A stretch of DNA of 19,254 bases from assembly GCA_049599475.1 (NCBI GenBank), contig JBMYOQ010000076.1, forward strand, positions 1-19,254, read 5' to 3'. Shown piece after piece: positions 3,531-19,214 of the stretch. How positions within the stretch are numbered: position 1 is the stretch's first letter; each line of letters opens with the position of its first letter. The position numbers and the translations under genes were made by a program. The notes beneath the pieces were generated by a model. That model searched no databases, was not told where the DNA came from, and saw only the letters and a program-made list of their open reading frames with translations. The DNA comes from Opitutales bacterium (GTDB lineage: Bacteria; Verrucomicrobiota; Verrucomicrobiia; Opitutales; JABSRG01).

Positions 3531-3679
3531 CAGTCTGTCTCAAAACTCGGATAAATCTCTCTTTAGGTAGCGCGCGCTCACCGAGCGAGCATGACTCGGC
3601 CTTAGCCGCGCTAGTCGTTTGGGCTAACGCGCTCATGCCGGATACGGTGATCCGGCGCCACCACTTTTGAGACAACCTC
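3531..3679. mobile_element. 149-bp non-autonomous element (MITE) with IS1182-like TIRs enclosing an inverted REP pair
   Basis: Ends are CAGTCTGTCTCAAAA (3531-3545) and TTTTGAGACAACCTC (3665-3679). It is flanked by the direct repeat AGTTC (3526-3530, 3680-3684). Internal REP-like units are at 3566-3590 and 3637-3662. The first ~95 bp recur inverted near 19102-19195. Confidence 0.8.
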
Positions 3680-3709: not shown

Positions 3710-4234
3710 TTATGCGGCTTCGCGGAGTGTGGGACGGAGCATGTCCGCGAGGCGGTTACGCGCTCGAGATAGGCGAGACATGATAGTACCTACGGGGACT
3801 TTGAGGCGATCTGCGATCTCTGCGTAGTCCAAGCCATCGAAGTATCTAAGCCTTACCGCATCTCGGAAGACAGGGTCTAGGCGTTCCACACTTGAGCGGA
3901 CCGCTTCGATCTCGTCGTCGAACAAGTGGCGCTCGGGCGCTGATTCGAGCAGAGTGAAGGTGGGCGATTGGTCCTCTTCAATCACGAGGCGCTGGTCTTT
4001 GCGGCGACGCTTCAGAAATTCGCGATAGAGGATTTGGTTCAACCAACTGCGCACCTTGCTCTTATCTCTCAGCGAGTGATGGTAACGGCTCAGTTGCATA
4101 AAGGTGTGTTGAACGAGGTCGCGTGCAGCGTCGCTGTCCTTACTCAGTGAAGTAGCAAACTTCAATAGCCCCGTGTAGTGCTCATCCACAGCGGCGTCAA
4201 AATCGATGGTATTCAGAGTTTCGGTTGTTTTCAT
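3710..4234 (-). CDS. ECF RNA polymerase sigma-70 factor
   Basis: Region 2 (AARDLVQHTF, VRSWLNQILYREFL) and region 4 (GLDYAEIADRLKVPVGTIMSRLSRAR) are present. ATG at 4234 is preferred over the TTG at 4270, which coincides with a TTGACA box. Confidence 0.93.
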   Translation of the reverse strand: MKTTETLNTIDFDAAVDEHYTGLLKFATSLSKDSDAARDLVQHTFMQLSRYHHSLRDKSKVRSWLNQILYREFLKRRRKDQRLVIEEDQSPTFTLLESAPERHLFDDEIEAVRSSVERLDPVFRDAVRLRYFDGLDYAEIADRLKVPVGTIMSRLSRARNRLADMLRPTLREAA

Positions 4235-4235
4235 A

Positions 4236-4295
4236 TATCTACCAATTAGTAGGTAAATTCCTCCTGTCAAACTTATCTACCAATTAGTAGGTAAA
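4236..4295. promoter_or_regulatory. Two identical 22-bp near-palindromic operators flanking a TTGACA -35 hexamer
   Basis: TATCTACCAATTAGTAGGTAAA occurs at 4236-4257 and 4274-4295, with core dyad CTACcAATTaGTAG. TTGACA lies on the - strand at 4270-4265. Confidence 0.75.
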
Positions 4296-5089: not shown

Positions 5090-5527
5090 CTAAGCCACGC
5101 TAATGAAGCGGGTTTTGCTCGGCTTTATGCCGGATTTGTTGGTCCGGCGGGCTTTGGGGCGATCGGTCGTGCCATAGGAGCTATTGAGGCGGCGTACGGT
5201 ACGGCGGCCCTTCAGCAAAGATGCGAGCTCATCCCTATTGGCTTCCATGGAATCATTGAGCCAGGAAGCATTCTCTGTCTGAGCTTTGTAGAGCTTCTCA
5301 ATGCGATCCTTGAAGATAGCAGGTACGCCTTCTGCGCTGAGTTCAGCAATCTTCCGGATAAAATCTCCCTTGAGCTTCTGGTTATCGGCAAGGCGAGCAT
5401 AGTCCTGACGGGACAAGGCTGCTTGATCTAAGCGCAGAAGCCTCTCGAGCTCTGAAAGCAGTCTTTCAAAATCTCCAGTCCTTCGACTCTCCGAGCCTTT
5501 CTCTGGATTGCGCGTCGCCAAATTCAT
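5090..5527 (-). CDS. Flagellar export chaperone, FliT/FlgN-like
   Basis: 145-aa helical protein directly downstream of fliS. It has an L..L..D..AL...D...L......K pattern and a C-terminal L..L..GRR....SY pattern. Confidence 0.6.
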   Translation of the reverse strand: MNLATRNPEKGSESRRTGDFERLLSELERLLRLDQAALSRQDYARLADNQKLKGDFIRKIAELSAEGVPAIFKDRIEKLYKAQTENASWLNDSMEANRDELASLLKGRRTVRRLNSSYGTTDRPKARRTNKSGIKPSKTRFISVA

Positions 5528-5537
5528 GTATCGTGCG

Positions 5538-6014
5538 CTAGGCAGAGTGTAGGATAGACCCCGATGAACTCGGAGAAGATGCGGGCCTTGGGGCCGCAGC
5601 TGGCTTTGGAGCCTGTGGAGCGGAGTTTTGTTTTTGCAACATATCAGCCCAAGCTGAGCGCAAATCGCTAATCACAGCATAGGCCTCTTTCACGGCCGCC
5701 GGGCGTTTTTGGATATTGGCAATCTCTAAGCGATTAAAACAATACTCGTAGAGATCATTCAAAGTCTTGGGCAAATCCCCTTCCACGGACAGGTCCAGCG
5801 AGTTTTGTAGCTCGTTGATGATCTTCTGTGCCTTAATGAGGTTGTTATTCACGATCTCATTTCGGCGAATGAAGTGCTCATCGCGGAAACCCAATTCGGC
5901 CTCGTGCATGAACTTTAGGGCACCGTCATAAAGCATCAAGATGAGCTTACCCGGACTGACGGTGGAAATACTTGCAGTCTTGTAAGATTTTGATGCTAGG
6001 TTCGAATAGTTCAT
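5538..6014 (-). CDS. fliS: Flagellin chaperone FliS
   Basis: Motifs SPGKLILMLYDGAL, KAQKIINELQNSLD, LNDLYEY and DLRSAW. It has a Pro/Ala/Ser-rich tail. Confidence 0.95.
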   Translation of the reverse strand: MNYSNLASKSYKTASISTVSPGKLILMLYDGALKFMHEAELGFRDEHFIRRNEIVNNNLIKAQKIINELQNSLDLSVEGDLPKTLNDLYEYCFNRLEIANIQKRPAAVKEAYAVISDLRSAWADMLQKQNSAPQAPKPAAAPRPASSPSSSGSILHSA

Positions 6015-6042
6015 ATAGGGGTCAGGAAATGGATCTGGAAGA

Positions 6043-6348
6043 TTAGATTTCTTCCATCATGCGCCGTGCTACGGTGTCGATCACCGGCTGGGTATCATAG
6101 TCGCCAGCTTCGAGCTTAGCCTTAGCGGCCGCTACTTTTTCTTCCCGCACGTCGGGCATGTCTTTGAGTTTATCTACATAAGATTGAATGCGCTCCAGGT
6201 CGCTGACGCGGAGCCCAGATGGGTCGGCAACAACCGTTTTCGCTGGTGGAACAGCTTCCGTCTCAGGTGCTTTAGCAGCCTTCTGAGACTGGTTAGATTG
6301 TTGAAGGTAGGATGTCAGAGGAGCTGACGAAGAGGAATCGATGTTCAT
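6043..6348 (-). CDS. flgM: Anti-sigma28 factor FlgM
   Basis: 101 aa with C-terminal PDVREEKVAAAKAKLEAGDY...VARRMM, in a flagellar context. Confidence 0.85.
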   Translation of the reverse strand: MNIDSSSSAPLTSYLQQSNQSQKAAKAPETEAVPPAKTVVADPSGLRVSDLERIQSYVDKLKDMPDVREEKVAAAKAKLEAGDYDTQPVIDTVARRMMEEI

Positions 6349-6380
6349 GTTGAGAAGTGAAAAAATGAGGAATACTCTTA

Positions 6381-6407
6381 AAGTCGGAGAGGGCTGAAGG
6401 TTCTTTA
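6381..6407 (-). promoter_or_regulatory. Putative sigma28 (FliA) promoter for flgM-fliS-fliT
   Basis: On the - strand TAAA-N15-TCCGACTT, compared with the consensus TAAA-N15-GCCGATAA. It lies 32 bp upstream of flgM. Confidence 0.65.
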
Positions 6408-6432
6408 AAAAAAATCTGTAAAATCTTTTTCT

Positions 6433-7098
6433 TTAACGTGTGGGAAAGGTTTCAAAGGCTTCGTGCACGACATAACGCGAGAATCTCTGAGGGCTCTGCA
6501 GCATACTATCTGCCGAGTCTAAGGGAAATCGATCTGTGTAGACTTGCCGGGCGTAGCGCCGAGCAGCTGCCGACACATTAGGCTGCGCAGAATCGAACAC
6601 ATCATCGAAGACCCAGACCAATTCACCATCGCGCAAATCCACGAGCTTGGAGCGCAGGCCTACGCGAATGGGTCGGTAGGGGTGGTAATCGGTAACGTCC
6701 AAAAACAGGACCCCTTGCGCTTGATAGTCTTGCACGATTTGTCCCAGCATTGACGGGGGCAGCGAGGCTGCAGAGTTCACCTGATCCATGCCAAAATGCT
6801 TCTGCATGTAGGCACGTTCAATGGGAACAATTTCAAAGAGTTGCGCCTTACTCAGCTCGCCAATCACCGCGGAGTCAAAGCGCTCCAAGAGATCTGGATC
6901 TTCCTCAGGATGATAGGATGGCAAGACGGCGACCCGAATCATTGTAGCCGGAATATGCTCCATAGCATACACGTTTTGTGGCTGATAAGACTTGGGTGGG
7001 ATCTTGGGAATTCGGGCTCCGTTGGAATTACATCCCACAGAGAAGAGCATCCCAGCTGCGCAAACTGAGATAGCGGTAATGTTTAAGAATCGTGGCAT
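6433..7098 (-). CDS. Uncharacterised lipoprotein (alpha/beta fold reminiscent of CsgG/DUF799/TolB-N-like proteins) in the flagellar cluster
   Basis: 221 aa with a lipobox-like FSVGC at Cys23. Motifs RVAVLP and VGLRSKLVDLRDGELVW are present. Confidence 0.7.
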   Translation of the reverse strand: MPRFLNITAISVCAAGMLFSVGCNSNGARIPKIPPKSYQPQNVYAMEHIPATMIRVAVLPSYHPEEDPDLLERFDSAVIGELSKAQLFEIVPIERAYMQKHFGMDQVNSAASLPPSMLGQIVQDYQAQGVLFLDVTDYHPYRPIRVGLRSKLVDLRDGELVWVFDDVFDSAQPNVSAAARRYARQVYTDRFPLDSADSMLQSPQRFSRYVVHEAFETFPTR

Positions 7099-7148
7099 AA
7101 AAAGGGGCTATCGAGACGTGTAAATCTCTTATCAAAACGGGGTTATCA

Positions 7149-8840
7149 TTATCGAATCCGCTGAATCGCTGCTAGCTGGCTGTTGAACTCCTGCTGGGCC
7201 TGCTCCATCGCCAAAAACGCGTCGACCATGGACTGCTCTTTTGAGGCGATGAAGCGCTCGAGCTGGTCAATTTGGTCATCGATATCGTCGTTGGTATTTT
7301 GCAGAGACTCAGTCTGCACGTCGATGGTGGCATCCTCTTCGATAAAGGTGTCTAGCACCGCATCAATCTGGGCATAAAGACCCTCGGTGGAGTTGTTGAA
7401 TACATCATCCACTTCGCCCGCGAATTCTTCGAGTGCGTCGTCGAGAAGGGTCTCATCTGAGATTTCGAGCTTGTTGGTGCCCGGTTCGAAATCGATTCCC
7501 ATGTCCTGCAGACGCTTGATATTTGCGCCGTCGGTGCTGGTGATCAGGGCCCGGCGGATATCACTAATGGCGCGGCTCATTTCCCTATTATCGGAAAGGA
7601 GGCCCGTTTCGATGTCGCCATTATCGTCGACAGTGATCTCGGTGTTGTTCTCAAGGTAGTCAATCAGATCGTTATACTCAGAGATGAACGTTTCGATCTT
7701 ACTCTTAGCGTTGGAATTATCCACACCGACAGTGACCGTCTCCGTGCCCAGCTCCATCGCTGTGACTGTGAGGCCCTCGATGCCGTGGCTGTCGGAAGTC
7801 AAATTGTTGCTGTTGGAGGTCAGGGTGGATCCTCCATTCAAAGTGTATTCTGCATTTACCCCGAGGGTTACCGTACCACCGCTGGCAATTCCCAGCGCTT
7901 CACCTAGATTTCCCGAAACATCCGTTACGGTGAGGCCGAAGCTACCCGTCGCATCGTTGTTCAGGGTAATACGGTCGGACTCAGCATCGTAGGCTGCGGT
8001 GACCCCTGCGCTCGAGTCGTTGATATTCTGGATTACGGTGTTGATGCTATCAGTATCTTCGTAAGTGATTTCTACTCCATTGATTGAAATAGTACCGGAG
8101 CCACTGACTGCTGTCGCAAAATTTGCATCTGCCAGGCTGTCCGAAAACCTCAAAGCTCCCAAAGCCGAAGTGCTCGAGGTCGAATCGGTGCCGTTCGAAA
8201 ACAGCTTGGTTGCGACAAGGAAATTTGATGTATCGGTGGGGCTACCCAAGACGACTTCTGCACCCGAGCCCGAAGTCAGAGTAATCGAGTCTGTCGTCGA
8301 GTTATAAGAGCCTGTGACATCTCCACTCGTCGCAGTGCTGATCGCATCAAAAACATCTTGGAGCGAATCAGTGGTCTCGATGTCTACCTGTTGCCCATTC
8401 ACGGTGAAAAAGCCTTCAGAGACTTGGACGGACGTAGACATAGTCCCCACAGTCACGCCCGATACATCACTACTCGCGGCAAGCGTGTTAGAAATATCGG
8501 TGGTGCCGGCGCGTTCCGACTGTGTGGCTAGTTGAGTGATGGTGAATTCATAATCACCGGTCAAAGTGTTCTCCTGGGCCAAGGCGGAGAGAACTGTGGA
8601 ATCGGGATCTCCCAAGGAATAGGAGCGCCCGTAGAAAATAGTATCGCTGCTGAGAGTATCTAGGGCTGAGTCTAGATCCTCCATCCGCGAGCCGACATTA
8701 TTAATGGTCGAGATCTTCGTCTCATTGACCAATTTATCGTCTTCGAGGTTCGTGATCTGGATACGATCGAGGGCAATCAATTGATCTACAATTGATCTCC
8801 AGTCCATACCTCCATTGAGGCCTGATAAGGTAACGCCCAT
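7149..8840 (-). CDS. fliD: Flagellar filament cap protein FliD
   Basis: 563 aa. The N-terminus is LSGLNGGMDWRSIVDQLIALD, the middle has NNLTSDSHGIEGLTV and IETFISEYNDL, and the C-terminal coiled coil ends FLAMEQA. Confidence 0.95.
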   Translation of the reverse strand: MGVTLSGLNGGMDWRSIVDQLIALDRIQITNLEDDKLVNETKISTINNVGSRMEDLDSALDTLSSDTIFYGRSYSLGDPDSTVLSALAQENTLTGDYEFTITQLATQSERAGTTDISNTLAASSDVSGVTVGTMSTSVQVSEGFFTVNGQQVDIETTDSLQDVFDAISTATSGDVTGSYNSTTDSITLTSGSGAEVVLGSPTDTSNFLVATKLFSNGTDSTSSTSALGALRFSDSLADANFATAVSGSGTISINGVEITYEDTDSINTVIQNINDSSAGVTAAYDAESDRITLNNDATGSFGLTVTDVSGNLGEALGIASGGTVTLGVNAEYTLNGGSTLTSNSNNLTSDSHGIEGLTVTAMELGTETVTVGVDNSNAKSKIETFISEYNDLIDYLENNTEITVDDNGDIETGLLSDNREMSRAISDIRRALITSTDGANIKRLQDMGIDFEPGTNKLEISDETLLDDALEEFAGEVDDVFNNSTEGLYAQIDAVLDTFIEEDATIDVQTESLQNTNDDIDDQIDQLERFIASKEQSMVDAFLAMEQAQQEFNSQLAAIQRIR

Positions 8841-9020: not shown

Positions 9021-11198
9021 ATGCAGCAATCTTCATCAACGCCTGCAAATAGAGGCAAAATTGTCACTTTCCTGAAAACCCACCGCACCTGGATCATGTG
9101 CCTATGGGTGGGGATCGTGATGGGGATGACGCTGCTCCCATGGTTTCAGAGGCTGAAGTTTTTTTATGCAGTCGAGCAATCTTGCCTTTCACTTCGCTTG
9201 CAGTTTCGTGGACAAGAGATACCAGACGAAGATGAGGACAAGATTATCATCTTGGCGGTGGATGACCGATCTTTGGCTCGGGACTTTTCACAACAGGACC
9301 TAGACAACAATTTCGACCTAGAGTTACTGCTGGACCCATGGCCTTGGGATCGAGCCGTCCATGGAATCGTAGCGGATAAGTTGATCCAGGCGGGAGCCAA
9401 AGCGGTGGCCTTCGACTTCGTGTTCCCCACCCCCAATCCTGGCAATGCGGACTTCAAGGAGGTCATCGAGCGATATCCCAATCAAATCGTCCTCGGTTAT
9501 GACTATGTGCCCATGGAGAGCCAGCTGGTTGGAGATATTCGCGTACAAGAAAATTTGCCGATTGAGGAGCTCTTGCCTGAAAATATAGATAATCTGCTCG
9601 GTTTCGTGAATATTGAGCGCGATTCCGACGGAGCACTGCGCCGCGCTAAAGTCTCTACCAATATTTCGGCGGAAAACAGTTATTTCAAAGAAGACCCCGA
9701 AACTTACGAAAAGCTCGTCCGGCGGGCACATTCAACGCCTCTTGAATTATCGCTCGGAGCACGAACAGCCGCTCTAGTCGATCCCGAGTTCGCGGCCAAT
9801 CCGCCCCCCTTCACCTACAGGCCGATCATCAACTATGGAGGCGAGGCCGGCTTCTTCACAACAATCAGCTATCTCGACGTAATCCTTGAAGACCGGTTCG
9901 AGAGTCGGAAAGGCATTTTTAAAGATGCGATCGTCATAGCTGGTCCCTTCGACGACTTTTTTAAGGACGTCATTCCTACACCACTTGGGGACATGTTTGG
10001 AGTCGAAACTCATGCACATGTCTTGCGCTCAATCTTGACCGAAAGCTTCTACAAGCCTCTCAGCGATAAGAAGAATCTGGCTATCATCACCCTCTTCAGC
10101 GGTATCTTGGTAATCGGCAACCTCCGCCTTAAAGCCGCCTGGATGAAGGGAGCTTGGCTATTTGGGATTACCCTCGCCTACTTCGCCTTATCTCAGATCG
10201 CCTTTGAGACCGGGCGCTGGGTAATTCCTTCTGTGCCGGTCATGTGGATCGTAGTCTTCGGAGGCTTCATTTTACTCATTTACGATTTCGTAATCGACCA
10301 GTATGAGCGACAGCAACTACGGGGCTACCTCAATCGCTACGTTTCGCCGGATGTCGCTCGGATCTTAGTCGATAATCGCGATGGTTTTGATCAGTTACTC
10401 CAAGGGGCTAGCCGGCCGATCGCAGTGCTCTTTTCCGATATTCGCGGATTCACGACCCTCAGTGAGCGATATACGCCGCAGGGATTAGTAAATCACCTGA
10501 ACGAATACTTTCAGGGCATGGTCGATTCTATTCTAAATAGACGCGGATCTCTAAACAAATATATCGGAGACGCCATCCTAGCGGTCTGGGGTGATGTGTA
10601 TACCCAAGGCCCGCAAACCGACTGCACCGCGGCAGTGAGTTCGGCCTTGGAGATGGTCACCAAGCTCGAGGCTCTCAACGCAGATTGGGAAAGCCGTGAC
10701 GACCGCCTCCCCTTGGGCATCGGCGTGGGAATCAGTTACGGAGAAGCCTTTGTCGGGAATATGGGACACCCCAACCGCATGGAAGTCGCAGTGATGGGCG
10801 ACGTGGTAAACCTTGGGTCCCGCCTCGAGGGAGCCACCAAGCAGTATGGTTGCGCTGTTCTGGTGAGCGAGGAAGTCGTCAAAAACTCTGATGATACATA
10901 TCAATACCAGGAACTCGACATCATCCAAGTGAAGGGCAAAACGGAAGGTATCCGCATTTACACACCGGTGTGCAAGGTGGATGAAGTCGCCCCGGCCTGG
11001 CTCGAGTCTTGGCATGAAGCTCTAGAAACCTACCGGTCACGTGAATTTGACTTAGCACACGAAAAGTTCACAGAACTAGCCCAAGTATCTCTGGAACTAG
11101 AAAAACAAAGCTCTTTGTATCTAGAACGCTGCCTCGAACTCCAGAAAAACCCGCCACCTGATAATTGGGACTACGTTTTCATTATGACCACGAAATAG
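9021..11198 (+). CDS. CHASE2-domain membrane class III adenylate/guanylate cyclase
   Basis: N-terminal TM, then CHASE2 motifs (IIILAVDDRSL, PWPWDR, GAKAVAFDFVF, DSDGALRR, TPLGDMFGVETHA) and three TM helices. Cyclase motifs are LFSDIRGFT, KYIGDA and GDVVNLGSRLEG. A TPR-like tail ends PPDNWD. Confidence 0.95.
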   Translation: MQQSSSTPANRGKIVTFLKTHRTWIMCLWVGIVMGMTLLPWFQRLKFFYAVEQSCLSLRLQFRGQEIPDEDEDKIIILAVDDRSLARDFSQQDLDNNFDLELLLDPWPWDRAVHGIVADKLIQAGAKAVAFDFVFPTPNPGNADFKEVIERYPNQIVLGYDYVPMESQLVGDIRVQENLPIEELLPENIDNLLGFVNIERDSDGALRRAKVSTNISAENSYFKEDPETYEKLVRRAHSTPLELSLGARTAALVDPEFAANPPPFTYRPIINYGGEAGFFTTISYLDVILEDRFESRKGIFKDAIVIAGPFDDFFKDVIPTPLGDMFGVETHAHVLRSILTESFYKPLSDKKNLAIITLFSGILVIGNLRLKAAWMKGAWLFGITLAYFALSQIAFETGRWVIPSVPVMWIVVFGGFILLIYDFVIDQYERQQLRGYLNRYVSPDVARILVDNRDGFDQLLQGASRPIAVLFSDIRGFTTLSERYTPQGLVNHLNEYFQGMVDSILNRRGSLNKYIGDAILAVWGDVYTQGPQTDCTAAVSSALEMVTKLEALNADWESRDDRLPLGIGVGISYGEAFVGNMGHPNRMEVAVMGDVVNLGSRLEGATKQYGCAVLVSEEVVKNSDDTYQYQELDIIQVKGKTEGIRIYTPVCKVDEVAPAWLESWHEALETYRSREFDLAHEKFTELAQVSLELEKQSSLYLERCLELQKNPPPDNWDYVFIMTTK

Positions 11199-11251
11199 TG
11201 AAGGCTTTCGTCCGTATACATAATCTTGGCCTGAAATATCATACTGAATTT

Positions 11252-14200
11252 ATGGAAACTCAAAACTACGTTAGAATCCTACAGCCCGCTTTGAGTGGGA
11301 TTCTCAGCCTCTTGATCGCAACTCCATTGTGGTCTCAAGACGAGATCCAACCGCTGACCGAATCGACCATTGTCGAAGTAATCAATTCGGTGAATGTCCT
11401 CACTGGCGAAAACCTCGATGCGACCCCGGCGGAGCCCGAGATGCTTTTCCAGGCCCCTGACTTCCTCGAAACCGGCAGACGGTCCCGCGCTCGACTCGAA
11501 GCCGAAGACGGCACGATCACCCGCATTGGCTCAAACACCCTTTTCTCTTTCGACGACGCCAGCCGCACCATCAATCTAAAGCGCGGCTCCCTTCTCTTTC
11601 ATTCACCTGAAGGCCGCGGTGGAGGCCGCGTAGTAACCGCTTCGGCGACAGCGTCTGTACTCGGCACTACGATTGCGGTAGCAGCGACGCCCAACGGTGG
11701 CTTCAAACTGCTTGTCCTCGAAGGCGTGGCCCAGGTCGCCTATCCCGACGGCACTTTCCGCAGACTCACGGCGGGGCAAATGACATTCGTACTTCCCGAC
11801 TCCAGCTCCGGTGGGTCTCAGAGCTCAGGCGGCGGCTCACAAGACAGTGACGACCAAGGCAACGACGACAGTAGCGACGGTGGAGATAGCGGAAGCGATA
11901 ACGATAGCGGAAGCGGCGACAGCAACTCTACCGATGGCGGCTCAGACAACAGTGGCGCCGACAGCTCAGGTAATGATGGTGGATCCGACAGCTCGGGCAG
12001 CGGCGGTTCAGATGCTTCTGGCTCTACCGGCGGCGGTTCCAATGACAGCTCAGGAGGCTCACCAGCAGACCACTCTGGATCTAGTGATCCTGGCGGGGCG
12101 AGCGGAACCAGCGGTGCAGGTGATACATCTGCCGGCGGCAGCTCGCCGGGTCTCGCCTCCAGTGGTCCGAGTCCATCTCCAAGCCCCTCCCCCAGCCCAT
12201 CCCCAACAGGAGGACAACCGGGCCCTGTTATCAATTTTGACTTGGAGCGCATGCAAGAGGGGTCGGCGCTCTTGAATGGATTTTCTACTGAACTACCCAG
12301 TGTAGACAAAATCCAGGTAGCAATCACCGACCAAAAAGTTCTAATCAGCGAGGGTGGTCTTGAAGAAACCGGATCAATCGTGGTAACCGCAGAAGACTCT
12401 GATACACTTGTTGTCGTAGAAGTGGAGCCTGAAAGCTTGAATCCCTTGACCGAACACGACGCCAGCGGAGACGAGATCAAATCCAAGGATCCAGAAGCGG
12501 CACAAGACCAAGAAGACACTTACACGGACTTAGGATTTAATCTCGATGGCAACGGCGACCCGATCACCGGTAGTGATGGCAATCTAGTCCGCGGAGAAGA
12601 CGGCGTGTTACTGGTCGATGAGAACGGAGACGTTATTCGAGATCAAAATGGCGACCCTGTTTTCTTCGACGAGGATGCGCTCCCAGAAGGTTTCGAAACT
12701 GACGACGGAACAGTCGTGTTTGATAGCGCCCCTACTTTCGACGAAAACGGCGACCCCATACTCGTAGACGAAAACGGAGACACCTTCATGGTGGACGAAA
12801 ATGGAAATTTGATCCTCGAGTCTCCTTCGGAACAGCGCTTAAACGCAGCCCTTGCATCCTCAACTAACCCATCTCGAAATGGCTTCAGGACCGAGAACAT
12901 ATTTGAATATCCAGGGGTCGATCTCGCGATTCCAGAAATTCCCGAGGTAGAAGAAGGCCTTCCGATAGGATTTTACGGATACATAGGAGGCAATATTACT
13001 ATGGGTGGTGGTCCTCTGAACGTATCCGACATCCGCATTTCTCAGCCAGGGGCTAATTTTTCCGAGTTCAACATTCTCGCAGTGGACGCCCTTCGCATCA
13101 ACGGAGATCTCAACATCGGAGGATTTGGAGAAAATGCGCTCATCAACATTCTCTCCTTGGGAACCTTCAGTGTCGCTCAAGGCAGTGACATTATCTTCAA
13201 CTCTGCCTCTCCCTCGCTGGCCGGCATTGGCAGTTTCGGCGGCCTAGCTTTTACCGACTCGATCGTCCGCAATTCCAATGGTTCTCTAGATATCATATCC
13301 ATCGAGAACGATCTAGTGCTGCGGGGCTCACGTGTAATCGCAGAAGGAGCCCTGCCCGCTAGCTCATCCCCATTCGAGGGAGATGTTGTAAATCAGCTTT
13401 TCCTCGAGAGTGAACTCGCGAAACTGCGCATACTTGAAGACTCGGTGGTTCGCTCGACCGGGAGTATTTTCCTAAACGCCGACGGCGTAGAGATAGAAGG
13501 CTCACGCGTAAATGCTGCGGAAGACCTAAACATGATCATCGATGGGGATGTAGACATCACCGGTGGGTCAGCGATCCGCGGTAGAGACATCCATTTCGAT
13601 TCATTCGGTTCCAATCTCATTGAGGGGTCCACCATCATAGCAGATTCGCTCATATCTTTCGCAAATTTCGCGGATCACCAAAACAATGATAGCAATACCA
13701 ATAACGACTTCGCAAACACGGTAGAATTCACCGGCATTTCAGTATTCTCTAGTACTCTAGACGCATCGATACTCGAACTAGATTCAGCGGGACTTATCGA
13801 CATTTCCGACTCCTCGCTCACGAGCACCGATTACATCCGCCTGTTCAGTGATTCACAAATCATGATATCGGACATTCCGGAGACGAGCCTTATGCGTGCG
13901 CCTCGCATCGAGATCTCGAGCAATGGCCCCCTGGATATCAGTAACGCAACTATTCGTGCCGGCAGGGACGGACTGGATCTTTACGCAGATGGCAGCGTGT
14001 CGATCAGTGCCGGGTCTGATGTGCGCGGCGGTTTCGTATTCATCGGAGCAGACTCCGAGCAAATCGGAATCAACAACTCCAGTGTCGAAGCGACACGCGA
14101 CCTTCAGATTTTCTCTAGAAACGTAGTCCGGATTGATGCAAGCGAAGTGACCGCGGACTATGTCGAAATCAACGCCGATGTAATCAAATCGCAACTCAGC

Positions 14201-14560
14201 CAATACAACACTACGGACCTGAATCTGTTTGGCGATAGCGAGATCGCCCTGGACCAAATCGATCTCCGAAACCTCACCACGATTAATATGGCGGCGCGCA
14301 CCCTAGTGCTTTCGGATGTCCAGTTCTCCTCCACATCCAGCTCTATTTCTCTGGGCTCTGAAATCGGCGTATTGGCACCTGACCCGAACACGGGAGCGGA
14401 CGCGGTCACCGGATACGTGAACTTTATCGAAAACGTCACTTACGATGGTTCCCCCGCGGAGGACTTTGTGTCCACCCAGCACGGAGGAAACGCCGCTGAA
14501 ACAGATGCGCGCATCGAAATCTACTCCACCACTGCACCTGAGGATATTCCTATGAACTAA
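11252..14560 (+). CDS. Secreted FecR-domain protein with low-complexity linker, DENG repeats and beta-helix-like C-terminal region
   Basis: ATG at 11252 gives a Sec-type signal peptide. The FecR motif is LETGRRSRARLEAEDGTITRIGSNT...TASATASVLGT...VLEG. A G/S/D linker, (PS)n, DENG repeats and repeated I..S.I.A strands follow. Confidence 0.88.
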   Translation: METQNYVRILQPALSGILSLLIATPLWSQDEIQPLTESTIVEVINSVNVLTGENLDATPAEPEMLFQAPDFLETGRRSRARLEAEDGTITRIGSNTLFSFDDASRTINLKRGSLLFHSPEGRGGGRVVTASATASVLGTTIAVAATPNGGFKLLVLEGVAQVAYPDGTFRRLTAGQMTFVLPDSSSGGSQSSGGGSQDSDDQGNDDSSDGGDSGSDNDSGSGDSNSTDGGSDNSGADSSGNDGGSDSSGSGGSDASGSTGGGSNDSSGGSPADHSGSSDPGGASGTSGAGDTSAGGSSPGLASSGPSPSPSPSPSPSPTGGQPGPVINFDLERMQEGSALLNGFSTELPSVDKIQVAITDQKVLISEGGLEETGSIVVTAEDSDTLVVVEVEPESLNPLTEHDASGDEIKSKDPEAAQDQEDTYTDLGFNLDGNGDPITGSDGNLVRGEDGVLLVDENGDVIRDQNGDPVFFDEDALPEGFETDDGTVVFDSAPTFDENGDPILVDENGDTFMVDENGNLILESPSEQRLNAALASSTNPSRNGFRTENIFEYPGVDLAIPEIPEVEEGLPIGFYGYIGGNITMGGGPLNVSDIRISQPGANFSEFNILAVDALRINGDLNIGGFGENALINILSLGTFSVAQGSDIIFNSASPSLAGIGSFGGLAFTDSIVRNSNGSLDIISIENDLVLRGSRVIAEGALPASSSPFEGDVVNQLFLESELAKLRILEDSVVRSTGSIFLNADGVEIEGSRVNAAEDLNMIIDGDVDITGGSAIRGRDIHFDSFGSNLIEGSTIIADSLISFANFADHQNNDSNTNNDFANTVEFTGISVFSSTLDASILELDSAGLIDISDSSLTSTDYIRLFSDSQIMISDIPETSLMRAPRIEISSNGPLDISNATIRAGRDGLDLYADGSVSISAGSDVRGGFVFIGADSEQIGINNSSVEATRDLQIFSRNVVRIDASEVTADYVEINADVIKSQLSQYNTTDLNLFGDSEIALDQIDLRNLTTINMAARTLVLSDVQFSSTSSSISLGSEIGVLAPDPNTGADAVTGYVNFIENVTYDGSPAEDFVSTQHGGNAAETDARIEIYSTTAPEDIPMN

Positions 14561-14608
14561 CCCTTCCGATTATCACCTGCTCTCACATTTAATAAGCTGC
14601 CGTATACT

Positions 14609-15631
14609 ATGAAACTTTCACTGCCCACCCTTAGCCAATCCCTAGCACGCCTCGCCGGAGGGCTTCTTCTCGCCGGAGGCTCTATATTGCACGGACAGAC
14701 TCCGCTTGAGTCCGCAAACGAGTCTCTAGACAAGAGTGCCGCAACTGCAGACTTCAATTCGGGCGTCAGCGAGATCCCGGTATTTTTTGAAGATGAGTTC
14801 GAAGACTTAGGCCCGCAATACCTCCTAAAACCTGGTAAGAAACCTCACGATTGGTTCCGCGCCGTATTCGACAGCCAGTGGCTCTATACATCCAACCCGA
14901 CACTCGCCTCCGACGAGACAGCGGAGCCGACTGACCTTTTCGTGTTTACCGGACAATTCGGTGTATCCCCGCGCACCATCAAATGGCTCGGCGGCGACCT
15001 CAGCTCTCTCACAGGCTATCGGTACCAAATTTTCAAATACGCTTTCGCCACGGACGACAAATTGATCAATGGCTTTCTCGTATCCGAAAATAATTTCACG
15101 GCGCATACTCTGTTTTCCGATGTTCGTTGGACGCGCGACCAATGGGTGGCTCAAGTGGGCCTGCGCTTCACCCGACTTGACAATTCAACGGACCCCGGCG
15201 GCTTTTACAACGAGCTCGTTCCTACTTGGGCTCTATCGCGCAGCTTCAACATAAGCCAGACCACTCAATTCAGCGCCCGATACGATGGCTCCCTCTATGC
15301 AACAAAGAGTGATGCTTTCCGCCTCCAGCGCGATGACTTTAATGATCGGATCTCAAACACTGTATCCATCAATCTCACACACCAGATCTTTAAAAACTTC
15401 TTCTTTCAGCCCTCTGCCCGTGTCAATCACTCCAAATTCACGGATGATCCCACAGGCGACCGCGAAGACCTTACTTGGGGCCTAAACGGCACCCTATCCT
15501 ACCGCTTCGGCGCACACGGCTCGATTCGCTTTTTCACTGGGTATCAGTCCCGCGATTCAAACGGTGTCGGCATAACCGACTATACAAGCCTCGATATCGG
15601 TTGGGGCGCCAATGCTTCATTCCGATTCTAA
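14609..15631 (+). CDS. Outer-membrane beta-barrel protein
   Basis: 340 aa with a signal peptide and alternating aromatic/hydrophobic strands. It ends in WGANASFRF, a terminal-Phe BAM signal. Confidence 0.85.
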   Translation: MKLSLPTLSQSLARLAGGLLLAGGSILHGQTPLESANESLDKSAATADFNSGVSEIPVFFEDEFEDLGPQYLLKPGKKPHDWFRAVFDSQWLYTSNPTLASDETAEPTDLFVFTGQFGVSPRTIKWLGGDLSSLTGYRYQIFKYAFATDDKLINGFLVSENNFTAHTLFSDVRWTRDQWVAQVGLRFTRLDNSTDPGGFYNELVPTWALSRSFNISQTTQFSARYDGSLYATKSDAFRLQRDDFNDRISNTVSINLTHQIFKNFFFQPSARVNHSKFTDDPTGDREDLTWGLNGTLSYRFGAHGSIRFFTGYQSRDSNGVGITDYTSLDIGWGANASFRF

Positions 15632-15640
15632 ATTCCTGCC

Positions 15641-18600
15641 ATGAATACACTTTTACATCGACTACATAAATTGCGCGGGCTCTGTCTGCTTGCACTCACA
15701 TGTAAGGGTATCCTGCTTACGGCGAATACGAACTTACCTCGGTTTGAGCCCAGCGGTGCATCTTTTTTCGGCGAACTCAAAGGCGAGAAACAGGAGTTGA
15801 CGGACCCCAACGGACCGCGGGGCCTGACGTTTTACGAATCATCATTTGTCGTGCCTCAAATCTGGACCACAGGGGAGAGCGCCACACTCATAGATCATCC
15901 CTACAATACCAATCCCATTTATACGAAACTGAGCAGCGCTGATTTTTTCGACTTCGCGAACAACGTCGAATTAGCCGAGCGGGATGAGACCCGCGTCCCG
16001 CTTTTAGAGACCACCCATCACAATCTTGAGCTCTCAGGCCTACCGGTTGGAGACGAAGAGACGGTTTACATCAGCCTCTTTGGTTTCGAAATGGGATACG
16101 AAGGGACTCTCGGTCAATTCGACTACTACATCTCAGATCTAGGCAACGGCAACTACCAGGAAACTCGAGTTTACCAATACGGAACCGTAGAGTTGTTTAA
16201 TTACGACACAGCCTCAGAGTCCTTCAATCTGATTAGCTCCACCTATTCCGGAGCCCTGGTAATTCTCAATATTTTCTGGCCATCATCAGGAGAAATAGAC
16301 GACACCATCGTCTCACTGTCGATCACCGGACTCTTCGATTACTACTCCGGGGAGGACTCTTTTTTCTTCGATTTCGAGATCTATTCCCAATCTCCCATAG
16401 GAACTCCTTTAACCGGGACAGCGGGGACCTCTGAGGTGCGAGGATTCGATAACCCGGCCGTCATGCAATTTGACGAATCATACACGAGAACACAATCTCC
16501 GCCATATATCTGTGATATTGGCGACGCCACGATTCTACCAAATGCATACCATGAGATAAATTACAGCGTATTCGACGCGGATGGACTGGATTCAGACGTA
16601 ACAGTAACGACCTCGGTTTCGCCTCAGCCTGTGAATTACACCCAAAATTCCAGCGACCGATTCATAGGCATTATTCCAACCCCAGAAGAGCTTGGGCAAA
16701 CCTTCACGGTATCGATGATCGCAACGGACAGCGACAACATCACTTCCAACGCAACATTCGACATAACGGTGTCGGCATCAGCCGACACGGTAAGCGAGGT
16801 AACAGAGATCATCACCCAAGGCACGATCCCTCCTACAATCTCCATTGGCTCTCCGACCACCTTTACGGAAAACGGCAGCGCAGTTCTGGTAGACCCGTCG
16901 ATGTTTATATCGGATTCAGAAGATGACTTCGACGGCACGGGTACTCTTTCTGCCCAGATCGTAAGTGGTGCAGACACAGAGGATCGCCTTTACATCACCC
17001 CGAGCGGAAACCTTACGCAAAGTGGTCAGTTACTCAGCTATATGGGCATTCATGTCGCCACTCTGAACAAGAATATTGCGACAGGTAGTGAAGCCCTCAG
17101 CATGACATTTACAACGGGTCTCAACACCTCAAATTTTGATGGCTCAACCCCAACGTTCGCGTTTCCGAGTAATGTAGTCACCGCAATTGCCAATGCGATC
17201 ACCTTCGATACGACTTCTGACGACCCGGGTACAGGCAGAGTCGTCAGATTCACGGCTGCCGACGCTTCGGCCCTTTCAGATCAAGCGGATCAGAGCCTTA
17301 CAATAATCCCCGTGGATGACCCCCCAGTTTTCGACTCAATCCCGGATTTCACGGTCCAAGCGTTCGACACCATTTCGTTCTTCCCCACGCTCACGGACCC
17401 CGACTCCACAAGCTTCAATTTCACCCTAGACACCTCTTCCCTGGGCCTAGGAATGAACATAGATGCCACCACCGGAGAATTTCACTGGACCCCCACAGCA
17501 TCCGATGTTCCTGGACCTTACATCGTGACGGTCGGAGTAATCGATGATACATCGCTCTCTGATTCCACTCTGTTCACTATTAACGTCACAGATGTCAACG
17601 ATCCGCCAGAGCCCGAGGATGACGCCTTTGGCACCAACGAAAGCCAGGCGCTCACATTAAGTTTCAATGACCTCCTGAGCAACGATACCGACCCCGAGGG
17701 CGATGCCTTTACCATAACATTCGTCGACGGATTTTCGGCCTTAGGGGGTATCATCACGACGGATACAACCAACAAGCAAATCGTCTACGAAACTTCTAGT
17801 GTGCCCGACCTGTTCACCCTTGAAGGGGGCGATGTTCTTGTAGACTCCTTCGTCTATGAAGTGACCGACTCCGAAGGTGGCGAATCCCTCGCTTCCGTAT
17901 TTGTGACGATCAACGGAGAGGACAGCCCGCCCGTCATTTTCGGATTCGTGCCGACTGAGATTTTCGAATCTGAGACCTTCGAAACCCTCGTATCGGTAAG
18001 CGATTTCGACTCCACGGCCATCCCTGTTTTATCAGGAGATCTACCCAGATTCGCAGAGCTTCGCTTCGACCAAGTATTCAATGGAGAAGCCTTCTACGAT
18101 CTCATTTTTGCACCTGGACCCGATGACATCGGAACATACACCATCACCCTGACAGCCGAAAACAGTGATACGACTGAGACCACGAGCGAGTCCTACACAT
18201 TTGAAGTGGTCGATGGCTTTCAGCGCCCCTTCTCTATGGTGGTATCCGACTTCTTTGTTGCTGAAAACCAAACCCGCCTCGATATCCCGCTCTACGACTT
18301 GTTCGATGATCCAGACGGCAATGACTCCAGCCTCAGCTTCGATATCACCCGTAATATTAATCCCTTCATCTACGAGAGCATAGTATTCAACCAACAATCA
18401 GGAATCCTCACGCTGACCTTCAATGAAACGGTGCAAGGCTTCCTAGATCTAACGATTCGCGCAGTCGATACAGACGGGCTCTCGTCATCGGTTGATATTT
18501 TCATCGGAGTCCGCAACGACTTTTTCGGAGATATGCAGGCTCCCGCGGGTGCTTCCGCAAAACGCGTTTTCATGCCCGATACGATCGAGGCAGATATGGA

Positions 18601-19093
18601 CAGCGTAAAGAATATCGCGATTGCGCCTCTGGCGACAACTGCGAGCCGTTTCCCTACATACGAGTGGGACCCCACTGCGAGCACTTTGACTGTCGAGCCT
18701 ACCGCCACTCCGAGCCGCTCACTCCTGTCCACCACCTACTATCTTGAGAACGGCGATGTCGTTGAGCAGATGTTCCCAGTCACCTTCACTAGCGGCGAAA
18801 TTTTCAGCTCTGATGCAAGCGTGGGGGATAATTGGTTCTACTCGGAAGCACTCGGCCTCTACTACAGGTCCTTAGAATGGGCGTATCACCCCATCCTCGG
18901 CTGGCTATATGTCGACGCCACGTTCTCCGACAATATTTACTTCTACAGCGAAGACCACGGATGGATGTACACCTCGGAATCGGCATTCCCATACGTATAC
19001 GACACTCAGTCAAAAGTATGGAAATACCTCTACATCGACTCCGAATCCGCCTTCATTTACAATTTCGAAGAGAGCGCTTATTCGGCCTGGTAG
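15641..19093 (+). CDS. Large acidic surface protein / putative adhesin with cadherin-like and Ig-like repeats and a Trp/Tyr-rich C-terminal domain
   Basis: 1150 aa with an N-terminal basic/hydrophobic leader. Repeats include VDDPPVF, GMNIDATTGEFHWTP (He_PIG-like), VNDPPEPEDD...LLSNDTDPEGD and LFDDPDG. The last ~90 aa are aromatic-rich. Confidence 0.85.
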   Translation: MNTLLHRLHKLRGLCLLALTCKGILLTANTNLPRFEPSGASFFGELKGEKQELTDPNGPRGLTFYESSFVVPQIWTTGESATLIDHPYNTNPIYTKLSSADFFDFANNVELAERDETRVPLLETTHHNLELSGLPVGDEETVYISLFGFEMGYEGTLGQFDYYISDLGNGNYQETRVYQYGTVELFNYDTASESFNLISSTYSGALVILNIFWPSSGEIDDTIVSLSITGLFDYYSGEDSFFFDFEIYSQSPIGTPLTGTAGTSEVRGFDNPAVMQFDESYTRTQSPPYICDIGDATILPNAYHEINYSVFDADGLDSDVTVTTSVSPQPVNYTQNSSDRFIGIIPTPEELGQTFTVSMIATDSDNITSNATFDITVSASADTVSEVTEIITQGTIPPTISIGSPTTFTENGSAVLVDPSMFISDSEDDFDGTGTLSAQIVSGADTEDRLYITPSGNLTQSGQLLSYMGIHVATLNKNIATGSEALSMTFTTGLNTSNFDGSTPTFAFPSNVVTAIANAITFDTTSDDPGTGRVVRFTAADASALSDQADQSLTIIPVDDPPVFDSIPDFTVQAFDTISFFPTLTDPDSTSFNFTLDTSSLGLGMNIDATTGEFHWTPTASDVPGPYIVTVGVIDDTSLSDSTLFTINVTDVNDPPEPEDDAFGTNESQALTLSFNDLLSNDTDPEGDAFTITFVDGFSALGGIITTDTTNKQIVYETSSVPDLFTLEGGDVLVDSFVYEVTDSEGGESLASVFVTINGEDSPPVIFGFVPTEIFESETFETLVSVSDFDSTAIPVLSGDLPRFAELRFDQVFNGEAFYDLIFAPGPDDIGTYTITLTAENSDTTETTSESYTFEVVDGFQRPFSMVVSDFFVAENQTRLDIPLYDLFDDPDGNDSSLSFDITRNINPFIYESIVFNQQSGILTLTFNETVQGFLDLTIRAVDTDGLSSSVDIFIGVRNDFFGDMQAPAGASAKRVFMPDTIEADMDSVKNIAIAPLATTASRFPTYEWDPTASTLTVEPTATPSRSLLSTTYYLENGDVVEQMFPVTFTSGEIFSSDASVGDNWFYSEALGLYYRSLEWAYHPILGWLYVDATFSDNIYFYSEDHGWMYTSESAFPYVYDTQSKVWKYLYIDSESAFIYNFEESAYSAW

Positions 19094-19195
19094 CGCGGTC
19101 GAGCCCACACGACAAGCGCGGCTAAGGTCGAGTCATGCTCGCTCGGTGAGCGAGCGCGACCACAATAGAGATTTATCGAGTTTTGAGACAGCCTG
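19089..19195 (-). mobile_element. Partial inverted copy of the 3531-3679 element, overlapping the stop codon of the surface-protein gene
   Basis: The reverse complement aligns with 3531-3633 (about 10 differences in the first 95 bp, by eye). The TIR TTTTGAGACAGCCTG is at 19181-19195. Confidence 0.85.
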
Positions 19196-19214
19196 AGGTC
19201 GCTTGCCCTTATAC

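Follow-up and report, generated by a model that had tools for sequence, protein, structure and literature searches.

The window analysed here, a contig of 19,254 nt taken whole, belongs to an Opitutales genome of 4.68 Mb (96.6% complete) and carries a run of four genes. The first three encode a CHASE2 nucleotide cyclase, a FecR-headed protein and a predicted outer-membrane barrel:

9021..11198, plus strand: gene 1, CHASE2 class III nucleotide cyclase, 725 amino acids (aa)
11252..14560, plus strand: gene 2, predicted FecR-headed exported protein, 1102 aa from its ATG
14609..15631, plus strand: gene 3, predicted outer-membrane beta-barrel, 340 aa
15641..19093, plus strand: gene 4, immunoglobulin (Ig)/cadherin-repeat surface protein, 1150 aa, accessory
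18800..19090, plus strand: Trp-rich C-terminal domain of gene 4 (Trp tail)

Open reading frame (ORF) coordinates confirm the four co-oriented genes of the original prediction, separated by gaps of 53, 48 and 9 bp, and the description of the four products also holds. Gene 1 matches the Pfam families CHASE2 (E 8e-36) and Guanylate_cyc (E 4e-19); gene 2 has a FecR domain and, unlike the other 11 FecR genes of the genome, no anti-sigma part; gene 3 folds in prediction as a small beta-barrel; and gene 4 contains Cadherin_4, Big_9 and He_PIG domains. Overlooked in that description were a conserved C-terminal motif in gene 2 and the Trp-rich domain of gene 4. Co-conservation, predicted for all four genes, extends to cyclase, FecR protein and barrel, which are found together in two gene orders (cyclase-FecR-barrel and FecR-barrel-cyclase), and fails for gene 4, which is in place in only one other genome, of the same family. 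Judged from sequence, the conserved unit is these three genes, and, as had been predicted, it includes no sigma factor or TonB receptor gene. Close homologs are present in Opitutales and other Verrucomicrobia, and genes 2 and 3 occur once each in the genome. A scan for promoters and terminators gave no more matches than chance would (10 vs 9.0 and 4 vs 9.3, respectively).

The association among these genes was followed across 251 genomes of the order with profiles for the FecR head, the barrel, CHASE2, the C-terminal motif of gene 2 and the Trp tail. Matches were obtained in 48 genomes for the head, 48 for the barrel, 40 for the motif, 120 for CHASE2 and 71 for the Trp tail; removal of weak partial barrel matches with E>1e-7 (G019, G061, G122, G132, G177 and G241) leaves 42 barrel genomes, and locus L048, a duplicate, is left out of the locus counts. 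Of the two partners originally suggested for the barrel, the beta-helix protein is borne out and the gene 4 adhesin, as an obligatory partner, is not: all 40 motif genomes have a barrel, 40 of the 42 barrel genomes have the motif, every strong barrel match is accompanied by a head (42/42), and 209 of the 251 genomes have neither motif nor strong barrel. At 38 of 46 loci the motif gene immediately precedes the barrel gene on the same strand, and at none does it follow it; one of the eight remaining barrel loci is at a contig end. Within families, motif and barrel are patchily distributed (one of five genomes in the window's own family).

The cyclase appears to be associated with the opposite end of the FecR protein. 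Close FecR heads (E<=2.7e-49) number 22: 15 have a CHASE2 gene no more than 5 kb away on their contig, and two more have one across contig breaks. Two genomes, G105 and G155, keep head and cyclase together with a short FecR protein that has no motif, and have no barrel match, which argues that the head goes with the cyclase and the tail with the barrel. A second locus type (L026-L029 and L050-L069, in two families) consists of a motif protein, a barrel and a short FecR protein. It accounts for 25 of the 46 barrels, with up to seven barrel copies per genome, and is often near Trp-tail surface proteins; a FecR head is also present on 10 of the 19 motif proteins scanned from it.

The gene 2 product, which has no cysteine, begins with a likely signal peptide (signal peptides were assessed by eye and from homolog N-termini), followed by the FecR head, a Ser/Gly insertion, a head-associated segment and an acidic DxNG stretch. 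Its second half comprises a predicted beta-helix and then the conserved motif:

11342..11800, plus strand: FecR-type head domain, from Pfam and the family profile
11801..12211, plus strand: Ser/Gly/Asp-rich low-complexity insertion, ~137 residues
12212..12403, plus strand: conserved 64-residue segment
12959..14152, plus strand: predicted beta-helix body, from profile match and periodicity
14153..14527, plus strand: uncatalogued C-terminal motif, ~125 residues

The Pfam FecR match covers residues 72-159 (E 9e-9), and use of an in-frame TTG at 11165 as the start would add 29 non-hydrophobic residues. None of 112 homologs has so long an insertion (82 residues at most), and in most of them the 64-residue segment directly follows the head; this segment probably folds as one unit with the head. 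In homologs the head starts at a median position of ~21, and neither a cytoplasmic part nor a membrane anchor precedes it. By contrast, 11 of the genome's 12 FecR genes have an extracytoplasmic function (ECF) sigma gene within 252 bp and a hydrophobic segment before the domain, and gene 2 is the only one with no adjoining sigma gene, the nearest being 6.9 kb off. Measured against these 11 as an internal control, the loss of the anti-sigma part in gene 2 holds.

The body of the protein is rich in Ser, Ile and Asp and varies among homologs in sequence and in length, from ~300 to ~2000 residues with tandem duplications included. It has a 21-residue periodicity (z 4.5 by identity autocorrelation, the best of 44 lags) and no Pfam match, and a family profile of body plus end matches the beta-helical adhesin EtpA (8vba; E 3.8e-8), the sole PDB sequence match; a beta-helix is thus the predicted fold. 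The C-terminal motif matches no Pfam family and no PDB sequence under E 0.38, has Atlas matches that all score under 0.9, and bears no likeness to the FecR head. It is carried by 635 sequence clusters (E<=0.001) and by 108 of 112 head-selected homologs, with 25 residues or fewer between it and the C-terminus in 101. In a sample of the phylum it was found in 5 of 201 genomes, all of the window's order. From a listing of 150, 37 long proteins with the motif were chosen; Pfam finds a FecR domain in 28 of them and a clear enzyme domain in none. At the closest four-gene locus (L018, genome G003), the FecR gene is split at 11813-11859. Its two ORFs, 404 and 479 aa long, overlap, and seven consecutive G mark the junction; this split and that of the gene 4 homolog there may represent phase variation, decay or assembly error.

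Gene 3 is modeled as a beta-barrel of 12 long strands (predicted local distance difference test score, pLDDT, 81.5) that ends in a C-terminal Phe. The N-terminal ~50 residues are of low confidence in the model and include a conserved acidic motif. Pfam returns a weak match to MtrB_PioB (E 4e-7). The best fold match among 48,161 solved chains is AaaA (Z 17.9, root-mean-square deviation 3.6, 251 residues aligned), and further matches are CymA (Z 16.4), COG4313 (16.1), AIDA-I (15.8), BrkA (15.1), Hbp (14.9) and FapF (14.6), all at ~8-11% sequence identity. The autotransporter barrel family PF03797 is absent from the 25 barrel members scanned, and no passenger-barrel fusion was found among 7992 long candidates (a weak test) or among the 112 homologs. 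In genome G033, one 567-aa open frame (C108:1711-2952) has both barrel and FecR matches, the barrel match ending early; it is a possible fusion or frameshift. Gene 3 was also considered as a Slam protein and rejected, with PF04575 (DUF560) in 0 of 25 members at E<=0.05; the Atlas gave a single lead towards Slam, ranked 24 of 30, in a cluster that is 44% SlipAM.

The cyclase has the following organization:

residues 38-363 of gene 1: CHASE2 domain
residues 465-642 of gene 1: catalytic domain
near residues 24-42, 352-370 and 407-425 of gene 1: hydrophobic segments

Its catalytic residues D473, K513, D517, N597 and R601 are all kept; we take D473 and D517 to be the metal-binding aspartates, N597 and R601 the Asn/Arg pair, and K513 the adenine-selecting lysine. 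The second adenine-selecting site, where Thr or Asp is expected, is Ala590. The equivalent residue is Ala in L013, L018, L031 and L033, Thr in most other homologs, and Ser in CyaK of Sinorhizobium meliloti. The product of gene 1 is likely cyclic AMP (cAMP). The CRP-type DNA-binding family HTH_Crp_2 was not found in this 96.6% complete genome, and it matches in 14 of 14 control genomes. Seven ORFs of the genome have cyclic nucleotide-binding (cNMP) domains, fused to histidine kinases (two ORFs), glutaminase, NDH-2 and an MMPL transporter; none of the seven contains HTH_Crp_2, two of them having been scanned minus their N-terminal 90-120 residues. The two cNMP-histidine kinases are candidate readers of the cyclic nucleotide.

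A three-chain structure prediction was made for homolog L013, with barrel, CHASE2 and the FecR head as partner. The complex scores 0.52, compared with 0.00 for the best of three controls; the runs share at least 73% of contacts, and partner pLDDT is at least 77. In calibration, 116 of 157 solved pairs and 2 of 215 mismatched ones reached the docking mark; those that did so with a score at or below 0.60 were 18 solved pairs and both mismatches. Because this band holds few solved pairs and both mismatches, the model only weakly suggests that the head docks on the barrel in L013. One of the controls replaced the barrel and kept CHASE2, and its score of 0.00 speaks neither for nor against contact between FecR and CHASE2.

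The three genes are likely a split version of NsrA-CyaK, a rhizobial surface-sensing system. Gene 1 and S. meliloti CyaK share 28% identity across 606 alignment columns, and the gene preceding cyaK on pSymB encodes 1190 aa with a FecR domain at 66-160, tetratricopeptide repeats (TPRs) and a C-terminal barrel; by position and size it is taken to be NsrA, whose barrel is placed at residues 600-1200 in the accessible part of PMC7529298. Synthesis of cAMP by CHASE2 cyclases is described as NsrA-dependent in the portion available of PMC13001267. The head profile of the family aligns with the N-terminal part of the protein encoded ahead of cyaK (94% probability, E 1.5e-7), and the gene 3 profile does not match the 600-residue NsrA barrel. 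The rhizobial system, which also includes CyaD1/D2 and Clr, thus shares with this locus a CHASE2 class III cyclase beside an exported FecR domain and a barrel, with no sigma factor. Unlike NsrA, the FecR domain and barrel here are on separate chains, there is no TPR, the barrel is small with 12 predicted strands, the FecR protein has a long predicted beta-helix body with a conserved tail, and CRP/Clr was not found in the genome.

Since the protein before cyaK already starts with FecR, the rewired FecR that the original prediction put forward as a new element is not one. A sigma-free FecR protein beside a CHASE2 sensor is also in print: the accessible text of PMC5192318 describes a Burkholderia BiofilmReg operon with LysM-FecR and a CHASE2 histidine kinase, and that of PMC9239204 a Campylobacterota cluster with a CHASE2 cyclase, a FecR outer-membrane protein, TPR and a phosphodiesterase. 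As far as these texts go, both clusters resemble the present one in having a signal-peptide FecR protein without sigma factor next to a CHASE2 sensor; the unit here differs in having no LysM, kinase, TPR or phosphodiesterase, and in its separate barrel and beta-helix body. FecI-FecR-FecA shares the FecR periplasmic domain, and the anti-sigma part, membrane anchor, sigma factor and TonB receptor of that system are missing from the unit. A literature search, with most subscription papers outside its reach, returned no description of the Verrucomicrobial module.

Several secretion systems resemble the passenger and barrel pair. Type Va autotransporters, like FapF, have the 12-stranded barrel fold predicted for gene 3, and in autotransporters, too, the barrel is immediately preceded by a beta-helix passenger whose C-terminal end is conserved; according to the accessible part of PMC5895577, their C-terminal rungs exit and fold first and form a stable core. 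They differ in that passenger and barrel genes are separate here, PF03797 is absent, identity is 8-11%, and the passenger has an N-terminal FecR head. In Slam/type XI secretion systems (T11SS), as the portion available of PMC8406197 describes them, a stand-alone barrel is found beside a secreted protein with a variable N-terminus and a conserved C-terminus. Slam barrels have 14 strands and an N-terminal TPR region, as opposed to 12 predicted strands and an N-terminus of ~50 residues in gene 3, and their cargo ends in an 8-stranded beta-barrel, to which the gene 2 tail has no likeness by sequence (no Pfam or PDB match). Two-partner secretion offers a body resembling that of gene 2 in the TpsA protein EtpA; its transporters are 16-stranded Omp85 proteins with POTRA domains and its cargo has a TPS domain, unlike a 340-aa barrel without POTRA and a cargo that begins with FecR.

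Beyond the directly observed gene content, domain order, co-occurrence, order of motif gene then barrel and intact catalytic residues, we propose that the three genes form one envelope-spanning sensor, in which a beta-helix displayed outside alters CHASE2 cyclase activity. We hold this at close to an even chance. The gene 2 product would be exported through Sec and held at the barrel by its FecR head, which would remain in the periplasm as stopper and adaptor; the C-terminal motif would be the point of barrel engagement or the start of folding, and the predicted beta-helix would be shown at the cell surface. Head and CHASE2 would communicate, passing the state of the FecR protein to the cyclase, a relay that the original prediction had also proposed and that we likewise infer, and the output cAMP would be read by cNMP-binding histidine kinases instead of CRP. 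The likeness to autotransporters lies in the passenger-then-barrel order, a barrel predicted to have 12 strands and a passenger whose end is conserved. The fuller version, in which the stand-alone barrel recognises the C-terminal motif and threads the beta-helix out C-terminus first, the head acts as a stopper switching CHASE2, and cNMP-histidine kinases provide a readout without CRP, is rather doubtful as a whole.

Several observations weigh against the proposed sensor. The profiles were built from the same loci, and related genomes are not independent. Two genomes, G236 and G218, have the barrel and no motif, and in G236 the FecR protein that accompanies barrel and cyclase is short and has no motif, which also runs counter to pairing head with cyclase and tail with barrel. 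Five of the 22 close heads have no linked cyclase, three genomes (G015, G052 and G076) carry the three genes on separate contigs, and the second locus type has no CHASE2 gene in the flanks read, L049 excepted. The motif is also found internally in tandem bodies, as a beta-helix cap would be. The fold of gene 3 leaves its function undecided because its matches mix polypeptide-passing and small-molecule barrels, with the channels CymA, COG4313 and KdgM among the best at 7-13% identity. The nucleotide selectivity of gene 1 is uncertain because Ala590 stands for the usual Thr.

Some of these points favour a reading in which barrel and FecR-headed protein are a device for display or adhesion, and the cyclase is a mere neighbour, co-regulated or sensing by another route. 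Barrel, head and motif are more tightly linked to one another than any of them is to CHASE2; no CHASE2 gene is present in the flanks read at 33 of 50 FecR loci; and CHASE2 is far more widespread than the barrel (120 of 251 genomes vs 42). This reading, which we consider unlikely though credible, has to contend with the proximity of a CHASE2 cyclase to 15 of the 22 close heads in two gene orders, with the presence of head and cyclase in G105 and G155, where barrel and motif are absent, and with the recurrence of FecR-CHASE2 pairs in unrelated bacteria, at the S. meliloti cyaK locus and as far as the Burkholderia and Campylobacterota sources extend (PMC5192318, PMC9239204). Export itself may also be absent: the barrel could be a plugged channel for small molecules or oligosaccharides, with a periplasmic beta-helix that binds ligand and a head that signals to CHASE2. 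The folds of CymA, COG4313, VhGalP, KdgM and NanC among the best barrel matches fit such a channel, head docking is compatible with it, and barrel and passenger are on separate chains, unlike in autotransporters. We regard it as quite unlikely, given that the range of body lengths with tandem duplications is more like that of a surface fibre, that the loci read share no recurring genes for catabolism or transport, and that the 37 long motif proteins have no clear enzyme domain.

Gene 4 bears on the remaining alternatives. A four-part system, in which the barrel exports or anchors the gene 4 adhesin as an obligatory component, would suit the 9-bp gap and the gene 4 homolog in the same position in G003, which is split into two ORFs with 28-35% identity and is the only one in place. 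Four genomes of another family together contain 25 motif genes, and 13 of them have a Trp-tail gene no more than 3 kb away (1.2 expected if uniform), although this clustering possibly reflects one duplicated cassette, and a Trp-tail gene lies directly upstream of the barrel in 2 of 46 cases. Against these stand the 49 of 71 Trp-tail genomes without a strong barrel match, the absence of the tail from 20 of the 42 barrel genomes, and the window's own family, where the tail is in five of five genomes and the barrel in one of five. The genome itself has 15 ORFs with the Trp-rich domain, C-terminal in 12, for its one barrel, and gene 4 does not have the motif of gene 2. An obligatory role is therefore highly improbable, the Trp-tail family being distributed independently of the barrel, and gene 4 is probably an optional, separately sorted surface protein often parked near such loci. 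That gene 2 is a classical FecR anti-sigma protein, served by an ECF sigma factor and a TonB receptor encoded elsewhere, is scarcely credible: the Pfam match, 14 TonB-receptor matches and many ECF sigmas in the genome, one 6.9 kb away, agree with it, yet neither gene 2 nor its homologs have a cytoplasmic part or anchor before the head, and gene 2 is the sole FecR gene of 12 without an adjoining sigma.

Elsewhere in the window, an ECF sigma gene at 3710-4270 (minus strand) has no adjoining FecR-type anti-sigma gene. A flagellar cluster at 5090-8840 (minus strand) comprises fliD, a gene for a 221-aa putative lipoprotein, flgM, fliS and a flgN-like gene; it is divergent from the cyclase gene, 180 bp apart, and flagellar genes were not seen next to the homologous loci that were read. 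A ~97-bp repeat with an internal hairpin lies 3' of gene 4 (19102-19198), with a second copy at 3535-3625 and 21 blastn rows in the genome, itself counted, at 82-96% identity. It resembles repetitive extragenic palindromes or miniature inverted-repeat transposable elements (REP/MITE) and may serve as a terminator after gene 4.

That a sigma-free FecR protein can neighbour a CHASE2 enzyme and a barrel is already known. What these sequence comparisons appear to add is a tail motif that tracks a predicted 12-stranded barrel, a distinction between a head-cyclase and a tail-barrel linkage, and the removal of gene 4 from the obligatory set. With its small barrel and separable head, the split version would be easier to dissect than NsrA-CyaK for how CHASE2 is switched and what a sigma-free FecR does. 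If the beta-helix is not passed in trans, the system would be one more member of a widespread and partly described class; if the barrel does pass it in trans, the route of export would be an undescribed one and would have a defined signal, the motif carried by 635 sequence clusters.

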